From Escherichia coli (lineage in GTDB: Bacteria > Pseudomonadota > Gammaproteobacteria > Enterobacterales > Enterobacteriaceae), in the NCBI RefSeq assembly GCF_044324785.1, contig NZ_CP172131.1: a stretch of DNA of 8,910 nt; one strand, given 5' to 3'. The notes beneath the pieces are model-generated. The model saw nothing but the letters and a program-made list of their open reading frames with translations. It made no database searches and was not told the DNA's origin. Within the stretch, counting starts at the first letter, position 1. Each line of letters starts with the position of its first letter. Made by a program: the position numbers and the translations under genes. Positions 1 through 8,208 of this stretch are shown here, one piece after another.

Positions 1-69
1 TATTACCTTTCGAAGAAATTTTTGACATCCTCTACGCCCTGAAGGACCGGGTTTTACGGCGTACCAGAT

Positions 70-95
70 AAAAAAACCCCTCTACTGAAGAGGGG
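70..95 (-). terminator. Intrinsic terminator-like hairpin (minus-strand orientation)
   Basis: 7-bp GC-rich stem cccctct/agagggg (77-83/89-95) with 5-nt loop; the A-run at 70-76 on + gives a T-run after the hairpin on the - strand. Confidence 0.5.
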
Positions 96-218
96 TAGTG
101 TAAGGAACTTGCTGATTTTCTTGATATTATTAACCATCAATAACTGAGCATACAAAAAATAACAAAACTCTGACACAGATACAACCATCCCTCTTTGTAT
201 AAGACCGATGTGCATCTC

Positions 219-302
219 AAAAAAGAAGCGTGTTTCTGGAACACAGAACAACAATGCACATTGTAGCCAACAAATTCACACCAGAAACACGCTCTGTTTT
301 TT
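219..302. repeat. Long inverted-repeat element A: 13-bp perfect arms flanking a 41-nt loop, with A-run and T-run on the outside
   Basis: agcgtgtttctgg (227-239) is the exact reverse complement of ccagaaacacgct (281-293); aaaaaa at 219-224 and tgtttttt at 295-302 make the unit symmetric and terminator-like in both orientations. Confidence 0.6.
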
Positions 303-372
303 AATTTACACAAGAATATATGTCTGGAAAATCAGGAAGAAGAAATTAATGGGCATTCTGTATACGAAGGGA

Positions 373-434
373 GAGCGCGTTTCCGGTGCCCCATATTAGA
401 TATTATCCCTGCAACAAACACCAGAGACGCGCTC
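373..434. repeat. Inverted-repeat element B, related to element A
   Basis: Arms gagcgcgtttccggtg (373-388) and caccagagacgcgctc (419-434) pair over 16 positions with one mismatch and one G-U wobble, around a 30-nt loop; arm sequence is a variant of the element A arm. Confidence 0.55.
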
Positions 435-469
435 ATAATTCTTCTAGCGTAAATGATCCTTTCAGGCAA

Positions 470-497
470 GAAAAAAGCCGTGATTCTGTATCACGGC
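470..497 (-). terminator. Intrinsic terminator-like hairpin, strongest in minus orientation
   Basis: 8-bp stem gccgtgat/atcacggc (477-484/490-497), loop tctgt; aaaaaa at 471-476 gives a T-run on the - strand; a weaker T-rich tail (cttaatttta) follows on +. Confidence 0.45.
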
Positions 498-896
498 CTT
501 AATTTTATCGAAAACACGGATTTTAGTATGCACATGACTGTACTCCTGTGGAGTACAAGGAAATCATAATCAGCGACCAAACCATTTATCAACAGAAAAC
601 CAACATATTGATGTTATTTTTGTGACAAATGTTACAAATTCGAAACCACTGTATTTTTACTGCAACAAAATCTGGTTGATCTACAAGTTACACTGGGGTA
701 AAAAGTTGTCCGGAATGTTTCTGCGTAGTAAAGCCTCTAGCCGGATTGCCTTTGCAAAAACGCAGGAACGTTCCCCCCTTCATCAGTACTCCTGACGCTG
801 TAAGGAGCTGACTGATGCAGACAGGGCTGATGATATCTAATAAAAGCTATCTCATTTTTGCGCGTACATAAAATAAATCAGGCACTTCCCTACACT

Positions 897-925
897 CCCC
901 CTCCGGAATTGAGGGGGTTTTCTTT
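897..925 (+). terminator. Rho-independent terminator
   Basis: Stem ccccctc/gaggggg (897-903/911-917), 7-nt loop, followed by ttttcttt (918-925). Confidence 0.6.
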
Positions 926-1041
926 ACAATGTAAATAAATTGCTTGCGTAAAGTTCAAAAAAACTGCAAATTTTTACTGTAGTGTCGAGCTTCATGTAGC
1001 TCACCAGGGCATGGACTAAAAAGAAGTAAACCCATCTTTTA

Positions 1042-1067
1042 CCCCCCCTTATACGGGGGGTTCTTTA
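1042..1067 (+). terminator. Rho-independent terminator-like hairpin
   Basis: C-run (1042-1048) pairing with G-run (1055-1060) across loop ttatac, followed by ttcttta. Confidence 0.5.
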
Positions 1068-1361
1068 TAGCACAAAGAACACTTATAATTTATCATCTCA
1101 CAGCTATAAATATAAAAGAATAATATTCTAAACTACAGTTATTTATGCAGAACATAACATCAAACTCACAATAAATATAAAACAATTATTTTATAACTGT
1201 TCACTTATTATATTCAGACATATCAGAAACACGACTCAATTCTTTTTTATTTAACAAAATCCATAAAAAACTTATGGTTGAAATCACATTTAAACTGTGA
1301 AGGATATCATCCGGAGAAATTTTTCAATCCGACACTCCATAGAATGGACCTTTAAGACTTT

Positions 1362-1389
1362 ATCCTCATCATGTATGAGGATTTTTTTT
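1362..1389 (+). terminator. Rho-independent terminator
   Basis: Perfect 8-bp stem atcctcat/atgaggat (1362-1369/1375-1382), 5-nt loop, then a run of seven T (1383-1389). Confidence 0.7.
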
Positions 1390-1520
1390 CTGGCAAACAG
1401 TATCTTTCAGTAATCCTTGCTCAGTTCCGATTCTGACGTATCCCCGTGTGGATCTGAAAAGGAGATAATTACGCTCTGTGGCCAACAGGAATAACTCAAG
1501 CAGCTCCTCTCTGATACCAT

Positions 1521-1750
1521 CAGAAGAAGCATTAAACGCATTCTGGCGTCGATTACAGAAGAAGCGGAACGCGTTCCAGGCTCCTGTTGCTATACACACT
1601 ACCCACACTAACCCCATGGTTTTTGAGCGCCAGAAACGCGTCCGTATGCGTTTTAACGCGTTCCTGTGTTTTCAGCAAGGCCTGACTGAAGCTAGTTCCT
1701 AGTGCCCTGAACCAACCATTATCCAAAAAAATGCACCGGAAACGCGCTGA
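1521..1750. repeat. Array of at least five AACGCGTT-type palindromic motifs (iteron-like), same motif family as the arms of elements A and B
   Basis: Copies at about 1535-1546 (aaacgcattctgg), 1567-1578 (gaacgcgttcca, centred on the perfect palindrome GAACGCGTTC), 1633-1644 (gaaacgcgtccg), 1655-1665 (taacgcgttcc) and 1741-1749 (aaacgcgct). The 15-mer caccggaaacgcgct at 1735-1749 equals the reverse complement of 374-388. Two direct repeats beginning cagaagaagc sit at 1521 and 1556. Confidence 0.55.
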
Positions 1751-3326: not shown

Positions 3327-3672
3327 CCCGCGCCCCCTGTTCCCTGACGGCCAGACGCAGCCGGCGCAGCTCATCCCCGATGGCCATCAGTGCGGCCACC
3401 ACCTGAACCCGATCACCGGAAGACCACTGCCCGCTGTTCACCTTCCTCGCGGTCTGATTCAGGTTATTCCCGATGGCGGCCAGCTGACGCAGTAACGGCG
3501 GTGCCAGTGTCGGCAGCTTCCCGGAACGGGCAACCGGCTCCCCCAGGCAGACCCGCCGCATCCATACCGCCAGTTGTTTACCCTCACAGCGTTCCAGTAA
3601 CCGGGCATGTTCATCATCAGTAACCCGTATCGTGAGCATCCTCTCGCGTTTCATCGGTATCATTACCCCCAT
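3316..3672 (-). CDS. mbeC: MbeC relaxase accessory protein (ribbon-helix-helix type)
   Basis: ORF with the N-terminal motif MKRERMLTIRVTDDEHARLLERC typical of MobC/MbeC accessory proteins; sits immediately upstream of mbeA and overlaps it by 11 nt. The true start is ambiguous among three in-frame ATGs (3672, 3663, 3654); the longest is given. Confidence 0.8.
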   Translation of the reverse strand: MGVMIPMKRERMLTIRVTDDEHARLLERCEGKQLAVWMRRVCLGEPVARSGKLPTLAPPLLRQLAAIGNNLNQTARKVNSGQWSSGDRVQVVAALMAIGDELRRLRLAVREQGARDDS

Positions 3673-3703
3673 GAACAGAAATCCCCCTTACACGGAGGCA
3701 TCA

Positions 3704-3895
3704 GTGACTAAACAGGAAAAAACCGCCCTTAACATGGCCCGCTTCATCAGAGGCCAGACATTAACGCTGCTGGAGAAACTCAACGAACTGGACGCGGATG
3801 AACAGGCAGATATCTGTGAATCGCTTCACGACCACGCCGATGAGCTTTACCGCAGCTGCCTCGCACGTTTCGGGGATGACGGTGAAAACCTCTGA
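3704..3895 (+). CDS. rop: Rop/Rom, RNA I-RNA II pairing modulator, 63 aa
   Basis: GTG start at 3704 preceded by GGAGG (3694-3698). The translation VTKQEKTALNMARFIRGQTLTLLEKLNELDADEQADICESLHDHADELYRSCLARFGDDGENL matches Rop as I recall it from pBR322 except for one residue (G for S at position 17). Confidence 0.95.
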   Translation: MTKQEKTALNMARFIRGQTLTLLEKLNELDADEQADICESLHDHADELYRSCLARFGDDGENL

Positions 3896-4050: not shown

Positions 4051-4217
4051 GCGGCATCGGTGCGGATTGTATGAAAAGTGCACCATGTACGGTGTGAAAT
4101 GCCGCACAGATGCGTAAGGAGAACATGCAGATGCCGATGCTCTTCCGCTTCCTCGCTCACTGACTCGCTGCGCTCGGTCGTTCGGCTGTGGCGAGCGGTG
4201 TCTGCTCACTCAAAAGC

Positions 4218-4755: not shown

Positions 4756-4863
4756 ACAGTATTTGGTATCTGCGCTCTGCTGAAGCCAGTTACCTCGGTT
4801 AAGCAGTTCCCCAACTGACTTAACCTTCGATCAAACCGCCTCCCCAGGCGGTTTTTTCGTTTA
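4756..4863 (+). ncRNA. RNAI: RNA I antisense copy-number control RNA (about 108 nt)
   Basis: 5' region acagtatttggtatctgcgctctgctgaagccagttacct is identical to ColE1/pMB1 RNA I as recalled. Three stem-loops are retained, including ggttaag...cttaacc and the terminal hairpin aaaccgcctccccaggcggtttttt acting as terminator. Confidence 0.8.
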
Positions 4864-4919: not shown

Positions 4920-5057
4920 CTACTGAACAGAGATCCCCGTCAGTTTAGAAGAAGATGATGGAGCCACAGTCCCTCCCTGAACATCACGTATATAGTTAGC
5001 CTGACATCCAACAAGGAGGTTTATAGCTAATATTCCCACAAAAAATCTTTTCCTCAT
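4920..5057 (-). CDS. kil: Colicin E1 lysis/release lipoprotein (Kil), 45 aa
   Basis: My own translation of the - strand (below the 60-aa ORF-track cut-off): [45 protein letters not shown], with lipobox LVGC and SD aagga 8 nt upstream of the ATG at 5057..5055. This is a typical colicin lysis protein placed downstream of cea and imm. Confidence 0.85.
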
Positions 5058-5104
5058 AACTCGATCCTTATAAAATGAAAAGAATATATAACGAGGTTTA
5101 ATTT

Positions 5105-5446
5105 ATGAGTTTAAGATACTACATAAAAAACATTTTGTTTGGCCTATATTGCACACTTATATATATATACCTTATAACAAAAAACAACGAAGGGTATTAT
5201 TTCCTAGCGTCAGATAAGATGCTATACGCAATCGTGATAAGCACTATTCTATGCCCATATTCAAAATATGCTATTGAACACATATTTTTTAAGTTCATAA
5301 AGAAAGATTTTTTCAGAAAAAGAAAAAATCTAAATAATGCCCCCGTGGCAAAATTAAACCTATTTATGCTATACAATCTACTTTGTTTGGTCCTAGCAAT
5401 CCCATTTGGATTGCTAGGACTGTTTATATCAATAAAGAATAATTAA
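5105..5446 (+). CDS. imm: Colicin E1 immunity protein (Imm), 113 aa integral membrane protein
   Basis: Translation [44 protein letters not shown]... matches the colicin E1 immunity protein as recalled; SD gagg 8 nt upstream; convergent with cea, with the two stop codons overlapping by 4 bp. Confidence 0.95.
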
Positions 5447-7008
5447 ATACCCAACACATCATTTATAGTATTAAGTTTATTCTTGTCAATAAAGGCACAT
5501 AGAATGCCTGTAACAATAGCAATCCCCCAGATACCTAATGTAGTTCCAGCAAGCACACTAAAAAGTAAAACAACAATATAACTAACTCCAGCATCTACAG
5601 TTTTCTTCTCTAATGTAAGAAATAGTGGCTTCCAGTCACCTGTATCCTTAATTTTTAGGATATCAGATACCACATCATATCCAAAAGAAACATGTCCCGT
5701 AATCTTCAAGTACTTAGCAAACTGATCTAAATGCTTAGCCCAGTCTTCATACTTAACCGATTCCAGTGCATTGAAAATCGCATCACGGTCTGCTTTGCTG
5801 AATTTCTTATTTAAAACATCCTTGTATTTTTCAAAAGCAGCTAGAGCTTCATTCACATTGCTGATTTTCTTACCTTTAGACTTATCAGCAAGTTCCTGTG
5901 CCATTTTTGAATATTTTTCACCATATTTTTCAGATAGCGTTTGATAAAAGCTAACTGTTGCATCCACAGCATCCTTAATCTGCGAGTTCAGGAGATTAGT
6001 CTGCGCTGTTTTCAAATTTTCTTCAGATTCATGAACACGTAAAACAGCTGTATTACGATTATTATTAGCCTGAGACATAGCCCCCTGAATTCCATTTATC
6101 TCAGCATTAAGTTGGTTAATACGCGTTTCTGATGCTGTTACCTGTTTTTGTTTTTCCTCCATAATCTTACCGGCTCCCGTCCGTCGACTGGTGGCATAGA
6201 AAAAAGGACGACTCTGAAGCGGATCATTAGCTCTTGGTGACAATTTTTTGACCAGTTCATCAAGTTCCTTATATTTAGCAGATGCCTGAGCCAGCTCATT
6301 TCGTTTTCCGGACAGCGTATTCATTTCTGCATCACGGGCATGAATACTGGAGCTTAAACGGGTATTGAGAGTCTTAATCTCTTCATCCACTTTCGCCAGC
6401 TCAGATTGTGCAGCAGCAAGATTTTTTTGTGCCACCTCCACTGCCCGGGCCTCTTCATTCAATGCTGCCAGCCGTTTCTCTTCAGCTTCAGCCAGTTTCA
6501 ACTGGCGTTCTGTTTCAGCCTGCTCCTTCTCTATCTCTTTACGTCGTTGTTCTGCCTCCTGAAAAGCCTTTTCCGCAGCTTCCGCTTCTTTACGGGCTTT
6601 TTCTTCTGCTTTTGCAAGGCGCAACCGCTCTGCTTCTGCCTGCATCGCTGCATTATTGGCATGAGCCAGGTCAATAACCTCCGGATGAGTGGAATTATGA
6701 CGAAGCGCCTCATTCACAATATCCTTCAGATGTTGAGTCAGCGCATCCCGGTTTGCTTTTGCTTTAGCCTGTGCTTCTGCGGCAGCTTTTGCCCGGGCAG
6801 CCTGTTCTGCCTGCGTTTTCTTCAATTGAGCAGTAGACCATTTAGCTGTGGCATGAATGGCTGCAGAACTTTCACTTTTGCTACCTCCAGTTCCACCACC
6901 GCCGCCAGAGCCACTCCCGTCTGGATTACCATTCAAAAGAGTAATGATTACCTGCCCCTTATCATCATAAGGAACACCATCTTTATAGTACGCTACAGCT
7001 GTTTCCAT
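5443..7008 (-). CDS. cea: Colicin E1 (pore-forming colicin), 521 aa
   Basis: N-terminus [39 protein letters not shown] (Gly-rich translocation domain), a long Ala/Glu/Lys-rich coiled-coil central region, and a C-terminal channel domain with the hydrophobic hairpin [33 protein letters not shown]; SD gagg 8 nt upstream. Confidence 0.95.
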
Positions 7009-7055
7009 TATAAAATCCTCTTTGACATTAAAAACAAATAGTTAAAAGCAATATA

Positions 7056-7086
7056 CTGTATATATAACCACTGGTTTTATATACAG
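7056..7086. promoter_or_regulatory. Two overlapping LexA (SOS) boxes between the cea promoter and start codon
   Basis: On the - strand the sequence reads CTGTATATAAAACCAG followed by TGGTTATATATACAG: the first is a perfect CTG-N10-CAG box and the second overlaps it by one base, the standard colicin dual-box layout. Confidence 0.85.
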
Positions 7087-7090
7087 CTTA

Positions 7091-7119
7091 AAATTACGCC
7101 GCTGCATTTTCCCTGTCAA
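7091..7119 (-). promoter_or_regulatory. cea (colicin) promoter: -35 TTGACA (complement of 7114-7119), 17-bp spacer, -10 TAATTT (complement of 7091-7096)
   Basis: Consensus -35 with a 17-bp spacer, immediately upstream of the LexA boxes and about 85 bp upstream of the cea ATG. Confidence 0.75.
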
Positions 7120-7138
7120 CCCTGTGGATTTTCATTTT

Positions 7139-7154
7139 TGTGAAAACGATCAAA
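7139..7154. promoter_or_regulatory. Putative cAMP-CRP site (tgtga-aaacga-tcaaa) in class I position upstream of the cea promoter
   Basis: 9 of 10 match to TGTGA-N6-TCACA; centred about 62 bp upstream of the inferred transcription start; consistent with the known catabolite sensitivity of colicin E1 synthesis. Confidence 0.5.
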
Positions 7155-7267
7155 AAAACAGCCACCCACACCACGTGCTATTCCCACCCGATGCCACAAA
7201 AACCAGCACAAACATTACCGTTCTCCGGCCCCAGTATGTTTTACTGAAACCATGATATGAGACATTA

Positions 7268-7705
7268 ATGGGACACTGTCACTTCATGGCATGGCACACA
7301 CTCCAGAACGCACTGAAAATGACAGGCAGATCGCGTTCACAGTTTTACCGTGATATGCGCGCAGGCCTTGTCAGTTATCGTACAGGCCAGGACGGACGGC
7401 GGGAGTTTGAAACCAGTGAACTGATCCGGGCATACGGCGAATTAAAGCAGGATGAGACACCAGAAAGGCACAGTGCGGGACAGGCAGAAAATCCACATGA
7501 TCAGCAGACAGAACGCATTCTCCGGGAGCTGAATGAGCTGAGACAATGCCTGACACTGATGCTTGAGGACAAACAGGCACAGGCTACGGAACGCCGGCGC
7601 CAGGAAGCCGAACGGGAACAGCTACATAAAGAGATAGAGCAGCTCAGGCAGGCACTGGAGCAGGAAAAAAAACGGGGATTCTGGGCCAGACTGTTCAGCC
7701 GGTGA
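7268..7705 (+). CDS. Hypothetical protein: N-terminal helix-turn-helix-like segment plus charged coiled-coil C-terminus (145 aa from the first ATG)
   Basis: ORF with an AlpA/MerR-like HTH-looking segment (MTGRSRSQFYRDMRAGLVSY) and an E/R/Q-rich heptad-like C-terminal half. None of the three candidate starts (7268, 7286, 7319) has a good SD, so start and expression are uncertain. Confidence 0.5.
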   Translation: MGHCHFMAWHTLQNALKMTGRSRSQFYRDMRAGLVSYRTGQDGRREFETSELIRAYGELKQDETPERHSAGQAENPHDQQTERILRELNELRQCLTLMLEDKQAQATERRRQEAEREQLHKEIEQLRQALEQEKKRGFWARLFSR

Positions 7706-7788: not shown

Positions 7789-8208
7789 ATGAGACGTTCC
7801 GGCGGCACACTGTATCTTATCGCCCTGCTGACAGCGGCAACGGTCCTGACAGCCTGCACGCCAAAGGGCAGTGTGGAACAACATACCCGGCATTACGTTT
7901 ATGCATCAGACGATGGTTTTGATCCTAACTTTTCCACCCAGAAGGCCGACACAACACGAATGATGGTGCCTTTTTTCCGGCAGTTCTGGGATATGGGAGC
8001 AAAGGATAAAGCGACAGGAAAATCACGGAGTGATGTGCAGCAACGCATTCAGCAGTTTCACAGCCAGGAATTTTTAAACTCACTCCGGGGCACAACTCAA
8101 TTTGCGGGTACTGATTACCGCAGCAAAGACCTTACCCCGAAAAAATCCAGGCTGCTGGCTGAGACGATTTCTGCGGTTTATCTCGATGGCTACGAGGGAA
8201 GACAGTAA
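7789..8208 (+). CDS. Predicted lipoprotein, 139 aa, function unknown (candidate entry-exclusion-type protein)
   Basis: Strong SD (taaggag, 6-nt spacing) and a signal peptide with lipobox (MRRSGGTLYLIALLTAATVLTAC, Thr at +2). The stop lies 5 bp before the cer core. Confidence 0.7.
   Translation: MRRSGGTLYLIALLTAATVLTACTPKGSVEQHTRHYVYASDDGFDPNFSTQKADTTRMMVPFFRQFWDMGAKDKATGKSRSDVQQRIQQFHSQEFLNSLRGTTQFAGTDYRSKDLTPKKSRLLAETISAVYLDGYEGRQ

Follow-up and report, generated by a model that had tools for sequence, protein, structure and literature searches.

Gene organisation of the plasmid

The DNA analysed here (the window, 8,910 bases) is a complete small, mobilizable plasmid of the ColE1 type, on which an RNAI gene (4758-4860) is accompanied by rop, mob and exc genes as annotated in the matching RefSeq record. 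Over 501 bases around the colicin promoter it showed 100% identity to pSMS35_8 of E. coli SMS-3-5 (NC_010485.1), and several 8.9-kb plasmids from chicken and human E. coli matched these 501 bases at 100% as well. This pSMS35_8-like plasmid type is already in public databases, in whose records the colicin promoter region has been left unannotated.

The first gene under the promoter (5443-7008, minus strand) encodes a colicin E1-type structural protein of 521 aa that matched the Pfam colicin pore-forming domain (E = 5.5e-34). With 88.9% identity to Cea, the colicin E1 of ColE1, it is considered a divergent E1 allele. The colicin release (lysis/kil) gene lies 3' of the colicin gene on the same strand (4920-5057, minus strand; Pfam Lysis_col, E = 7.2e-32) and is expected to be co-transcribed with it, cea and kil having been described as an operon (PMC6234761). 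Between the two, on the opposite strand, is an immunity gene of the colicin E1 family (5105-5446, plus strand), which matched the Pfam colicin E1 immunity protein (E = 3.2e-35) and carries the same annotation in NZ_CP080168.1.

Divergent from the colicin gene are an exc1-like gene (plus strand, 7268-7705 as the longest ORF or 7286-7705 with the RefSeq start, 18 nt downstream) and exc2 (7789-8208, plus strand). The exc1-like gene is a 'hypothetical protein' in the matching RefSeq record, and a Pfam search with it returned no match. The divergent intergenic region between cea and exc1 measures 259 bp, and a promoter scan of this shared region found no convincing exc1 promoter. At 8.9 kb the plasmid is some 2.3 kb bigger than ColE1 (6.6 kb). 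Approximately 1.7 kb (window 1-1700) is without an annotated gene in the matching RefSeq record and holds several strong terminator-like hairpins (76-96, 474-500, 897-917 and 1041-1061).

The core promoter, start site and leader

The original prediction, made from the letters of the sequence, had placed a -35 hexamer, a -10 hexamer, two LexA boxes and a CRP-like site together on the minus strand upstream of the colicin gene, and all of these elements were recovered there at the positions given below. It had also described the promoter as a consensus one, which is true of the -35 hexamer TTGACA (7119-7114) but not of the -10 hexamer TAATTT (7096-7091), which agrees with TATAAT at 3/6 positions. 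The three matching positions are T1, A2 and T6, the key ones, and the hexamers are separated by a 17-nt spacer, GGGAAAATGCAGCGGCG (7113-7097), which is identical to that of ColE1. Taking the usual 7-nt distance after a -10 that ends at 7091, transcription is predicted to start at about G7084 (range 7082-7085, minus strand), within LexA box 1.

The promoter elements end 48 nt upstream of the colicin ATG at 7008. A 47-nt 5' leader (7009-7055, minus strand) contains a conserved T-rich block and a ribosome-binding site, AAAGAGG (7023-7017), 8 nt before the ATG. Conservation was assessed over 17 promoters, namely those of the window and of ColE1 and fifteen further representatives, and across this set it reached 0.98 for the ribosome-binding region and 0.76 for the leader; the T-rich block, TTTTAAC..TTTGTTTTTAATGTCAAAGAGG, was conserved in all 17.

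A generic promoter scan, which required at least 4/6 matches per hexamer, missed the colicin promoter because TAATTT has only 3/6 matches to TATAAT. The same scan reported a plus-strand candidate, TTAAAA-18-TATACT (7028-7057), which was regarded as an AT-rich chance match within the leader and LexA box 2. Two alternative -10 hexamers were also set aside by inspection, AATTTT with an 18-nt spacer being no improvement over TAATTT, and TATAAA, inside LexA box 1, being without a -35 partner.

The overlapping LexA boxes

Four bases, TAAG, separate the -10 hexamer from a double SOS box, CTGTATATAAAACCAGTGGTTATATATACAG (7086-7056, minus strand). Box 1, CTGTATATAAAACCAG (7086-7071), is an exact match to CTGT-N9-CAG, while box 2, GTGGTTATATATACAG (7071-7056), reads GTG-N10-CAG and shares G7071 with box 1. 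The 4-nt gap and the single shared base bear out the earlier description of two overlapping LexA boxes immediately past the -10. Measured against the form of a LexA operator, CTG-N10-CAG with an AT-rich centre, box 1 is exact and box 2 has GTG in place of CTG.

The presence of GTG in box 2 had been noticed before and read as a deviation from consensus that might tune cooperativity. The GTG is indeed there, but it is no peculiarity of this sequence: the AGTG junction is invariant in all 17 promoters, and box 2 cannot start with CTG because the shared base must be G to complete the CAG of box 1. The 'deviant' GTG is thus an architectural constant of overlapping SOS boxes, built into the arrangement itself. 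Nor does it point to a weak box: overall, box 2 comes closer to consensus than box 1, with 16/20 matches to the 20-bp LexA consensus against 14/20, and is the top-scoring 20-mer in the whole window by that measure. The LexA boxes were conserved at 0.95-0.96 across the 17 promoters, with 10 of the 16 columns of box 1 invariant, and the double LexA box pattern occurs in the window only at this site (0.12 occurrences expected).

Elsewhere in the window, a (TA)n run within the immunity gene, ACTTATATATATATACCTTA (5155-5174), matched the LexA 20-mer at 14/20 positions without the CTG and CAG ends, and in all likelihood simply reflects an AT-rich stretch of coding sequence.

The CRP box and the linker to the -35

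Upstream of the core promoter lies a CRP-like box, TTTGATCGTTTTCACA (7154-7139, minus strand, centre 7146.5), with 9/10 matches to the core TGTGA-N6-TCACA. The original prediction put this site about 62 bp before the start, and the arithmetic holds: with the start taken as 7084 the centre of the box falls at about -62.5, and with 7085 at -61.5, figures that could be 1-2 bp off given a predicted start, class I activation being dependent on helical phase. The label 'class I' likewise follows from where the start is placed, since CRP sites of this class are centred near -61.5, -71.5, -82.5 or -92.5, on the helix face that polymerase occupies. The box is the only site with at least 8/10 matches to the CRP core in the intergenic region; the best other match there is one of 7/10 in the leader (7021-7036). 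The work of Ebina from 1981 and 1983, of Shirabe from 1985 and of Salles and Weinstock from 1989 reportedly also describes promoters further upstream that compete with this one, or an additional CRP site of lower strength.

An A-rich linker of 19 nt, AAAATGAAAATCCACAGGG (7138-7120, minus strand), connects the CRP box to the -35 and, by analogy with the class I model, is a probable docking surface for the C-terminal domain of the RNA polymerase alpha subunit. Its AAAA run and two further A positions were invariant over the 17 promoters. The half-sites of the CRP box were conserved at 0.91 and 0.93, as against 0.73 for the N6 spacer between them and 0.61 for the DNA upstream. The distance from the CRP box to the -35 is 19 nt in 16/17 promoters and 18 nt in the remaining one, a fixed register that supports phase dependence.

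The individual motifs differ in how far they exceed chance. A TTGACA-N16-18-TANNNT pattern was found once in the window against 0.20 expected, and at least one occurred in 40/200 shuffled sequences, so that this match by itself is not significant. CRP cores with at most one mismatch number four in the plasmid against 0.33 expected, a count reached in 0/200 shuffles, which makes the CRP box one of several such matches in the plasmid. The other three cores lie at window positions 621-636, 3815-3830 and 4093-4108, and two of them recur in ColE1 (one within rop, the other between rop and the origin). The case consequently rests on the arrangement of the elements, their conservation in 17 promoters and the homology to ColE1, and not on any single motif match.

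A promoter family shared by many bacteriocins

A megablast-level search with the promoter region matched 323 plasmid records, and a more sensitive search with the 259-bp intergenic region recovered 1,071 plasmids from Escherichia, Klebsiella, Salmonella, Yersinia, Shigella and other genera. Apart from colicin E1, the toxins that were found behind this cassette are colicins B, R, K, S4 and 10, a tRNase bacteriocin of Klebsiella aerogenes, an S-pyocin-domain toxin, the pesticin of Yersinia pestis and a ColZ-like protein of Shigella sonnei. The -35 TTGACA and the 17-nt spacing between the -35 and -10 were found in 17/17 promoters, as was a double SOS box with a one-base overlap just past the -10. 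TAATTT is the commonest form of the -10 (10/17 promoters) and follows an invariant GTA, while the CRP core scored 8-9/10 in all 17. In pRHB12-C04_3 and pRHB22-C17_3 a near-identical E1-type promoter stands before an unrelated 252-aa 'hypothetical protein'.

Between the subfamilies (E1/B/R, K/S4/10, pesticin/ColZ-like and Salmonella), similarity extends as far as the CRP box and is lost at its upstream edge, which suggests that the box bounds the cassette functionally. That colicin E1 is under both SOS and catabolite control has been established since the 1980s and carries little weight as a discovery here; the one mildly novel angle is this role of the CRP box as the conserved upstream boundary of a promoter cassette used by many bacteriocins. 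We put forward, tentatively and as a possibility that we ourselves rate below even, that the cassette (CRP box, 19 nt, -35, 17 nt, -10, double SOS box and conserved leader) is mobile, with the CRP box as its fixed upstream limit, and has been recombined in front of at least 10 toxins on more than 1,000 plasmids. If this were true, the promoter family as a whole would be gated by carbon starvation through CRP, and the variants found in subfamilies would tune the strength of the CRP gate or replace CRP by another input. The candidates for such variants would be the FNR-like left half of the E1 type, the degraded right half of the K type and the symmetric box of pesticin. Judged from the aligned sequences, catabolite control may be common to the family in general; in the colicin K type the right half-site is degraded (TTGCA), so that CRP control may not apply to every member.

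A chromosomal relic of the colicin E1 locus was also encountered, at 127 chromosomal places in an E. coli collection, with 89.4% identity among the matches listed. Its hosts include ATCC 25922 (chromosome 4154543-4154919; 3485-3880 in the fetched stretch), the engineered probiotic SYNB1934 and an O6:K2:H1 isolate. In the relic the CRP box, -35, -10 and LexA box 1 are intact and box 2 is mutated, and the promoter is found together with a 5' cea fragment (METAVA...) and an exc2 pseudogene, flanked by IS elements.

Published regulation and a proposed mechanism

LexA inhibits the cea promoter, and mitomycin C induces it (PMC9208019). According to a passage of PMC2994835, which cites Salles 1987 and Salles & Weinstock 1989, the colicin E1 gene is stimulated by CRP-cAMP that binds on the upstream side of its SOS operator (see also PMC5999292), and the same passage places a similar site at the same location in colicin N. 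At the colicin K and E8 promoters, LexA bound to tandem or overlapping targets just past the -10 excludes polymerase, and a second lock is provided by IscR or AsnC (PMC4482635). Expression of pesticin falls sharply in a crp mutant (PMC4209828; PMC2738681).

Taken together, the region is very probably the promoter-operator that serves the colicin and lysis genes of a colicin E1-type operon, carried by a plasmid of the ColE1 family, repressed by LexA and activated by CRP, a type of promoter-operator with SOS and catabolite control that is already known. The likeness to the dual control of colicin E1 proposed at the outset stands, given the 93% identity to the cea region and the published control of that promoter by LexA and CRP. 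For this particular allele, LexA repression and CRP stimulation are carried over from the ColE1 literature and would apply by analogy, whereas we infer where transcription starts, that CRP makes a class I contact, and whatever effect the three small differences from ColE1 may have.

In the mechanism that we propose, sigma-70 polymerase would use the perfect -35, the 17-nt spacer and the weak -10. In undamaged cells two LexA dimers would occupy the overlapping boxes and cover the start site, thereby blocking the binding of polymerase or initiation and keeping the lethal operon off. Upon DNA damage, active RecA would lead to the self-cleavage of LexA and the promoter would open. Full output would also need cAMP-CRP because of the weak -10, for which CRP, sitting some 62 bp before the start and facing the same side of the helix as at lac, would compensate. 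Recruitment of the alpha C-terminal domain is the expected mechanism at class I promoters, where activation depends on that domain and on the AR1 surface of CRP, and here CRP would most likely recruit that domain onto the A-rich 19-nt linker. With the two requirements combined, the lethal toxin would be made only in cells that are both damaged and carbon-starved.

Further regulators that have been reported for pore-former colicins, IscR in particular, are outside the proposed model. A type-2 IscR motif matched at 7/9 positions over the -35 (7131-7107). As 21 such matches were present in the window against 24.8 expected, this site is at chance level and was dropped as evidence, and no IscR motif above chance was found in the window.

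Alternative explanations

CRP could bind the box without making a class I contact, and act instead by diverting polymerase from competing upstream or divergent sites, or by bending the DNA and so altering its occupancy by polymerase or LexA. A run of seven T and a run of five A flank the CRP box and would favour bending, the box lies within the 259-bp divergent intergenic region shared with exc1, and Shirabe and colleagues are said to have found, in 1985, upstream transcripts that were inhibited by cAMP-CRP in vitro. Against this, the 19-nt spacing to the -35 is kept in 16/17 promoters despite unrelated upstream DNA, as would fit a phase-dependent contact with polymerase at this promoter better than competition with upstream sequences, which vary from one subfamily to another, and at the threshold of the scan no sigma-70-like promoter was detected upstream of the CRP box in 7155-7267. 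We consider this explanation improbable, although it carries some weight beside recruitment of polymerase by CRP.

A second explanation is that another protein of the CRP/FNR family reads the box, mainly or additionally, so that a CRP/FNR hybrid site would link colicin E1 synthesis to anaerobiosis. The left half of the E1-type box, TTGAT, agrees fully with an FNR half-site, 8/10 positions of TTGATCGTTTTCAC fit the FNR core TTGAT-N4-ATCAA, and Eraso and Weinstock reportedly saw, in 1992, colicin E1 expression go up anaerobically. An 8/10 match is at chance level, however, with 8 found in the window against 5.6 expected; the right half, TCACA, is of the CRP type; and the homologous boxes of pesticin and the ColZ-like locus are symmetric and of the CRP type, GTGAT-N4-ATCAC. 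It is CRP, moreover, that is named in the published evidence (PMC5999292 and the passage of PMC2994835 mentioned above), and we therefore give a reading by FNR little credence.

The position of the box between cea and the divergent exc1 ORF (start at 7268 or 7286) could also be taken to mean that it serves the exc1/exc2 entry-exclusion genes and not the colicin gene. However, every plausible exc1 start lies roughly 100 bp or further from the box, and the K/S4/10, pesticin, O111 and pRSE01 loci have a gene other than exc upstream, yet the register to the -35 is kept; it is also kept at the colicin B locus, where no upstream gene is annotated within the fetched stretch. A role in exc expression at the expense of the colicin gene is thus very hard to credit. 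Finally, a reading of all the motifs as chance matches in AT-rich intergenic DNA, which could draw on the promoter pattern seen in 40 of the 200 shuffles and the four CRP-like cores of the plasmid, is effectively refuted by conservation and the literature: the double LexA box pattern was expected only 0.12 times, the elements show little or no variation in 17 promoters drawn from some ten toxin types, and the homologous promoter of ColE1 has been characterised by experiment.

Comparison with known systems

The lac P1 promoter, with CRP at -61.5, is the paradigm of a class I CRP-dependent promoter. The colicin promoter resembles it in having a single CRP site about 61-62 bp before the start, a position which in the window depends on the predicted start, and an imperfect -10. 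The two differ in that the -35 is perfect in the window and in that LacI is the repressor at lac P1, while LexA at a double operator would have this role in the window.

The closest relative among characterised systems is the cea promoter of ColE1 itself (NC_001371, cea upstream region approximately 4994-5093). The alignment with this promoter, suggested as a check on the original prediction, was run and gave a mean column identity of 93% over the intergenic region (about 280 bp). The CRP box (4994-5009 in ColE1), the 19-nt register, the -35, the 17-nt spacer and LexA box 1 were identical in the two, and the ribosome-binding site, the first codons (METAVAY) and the operon layout of colicin gene, opposite-strand immunity gene and lysis gene were also the same. 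Three small differences were seen: the -10 is TAGCTT in ColE1 and TAATTT in the window; the stretch between the -10 and box 1 is TTATG in ColE1 and TAAG, one base fewer, in the window; and a G in box 2 of ColE1 is replaced by A in the window, one step nearer to the LexA consensus. These comparisons, made at the level of sequence, show the region to be the homologue of the ColE1 cea promoter-operator, here on a natural variant plasmid.

The promoters of colicins K, S4 and 10 carry the same cassette from the position of the CRP box downstream, with an identical -35, spacings of 17 and 19 nt and a double SOS box with the same AGTG junction; the boxes of colicin K are identical to those of the window. 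The left half of their CRP box is a perfect TGTGA, in contrast to the right half, TTGCA, and the upstream DNA is unrelated to that of the window. The published co-regulator of colicin K is IscR (PMC4482635).

The pesticin gene, pst, of Yersinia pestis pPCP1 has the CRP box AGTGATTCAGATCACA in the same register, together with the same -35, the same -10 (TAATTT) and a double SOS box. Its CRP box is symmetric and nearer to consensus than that of the window, its upstream DNA is again unrelated, and the promoter drives a muramidase bacteriocin in another genus. With the CRP box as the edge of a cassette that precedes so many bacteriocins, a family-wide test of catabolite control would be straightforward.
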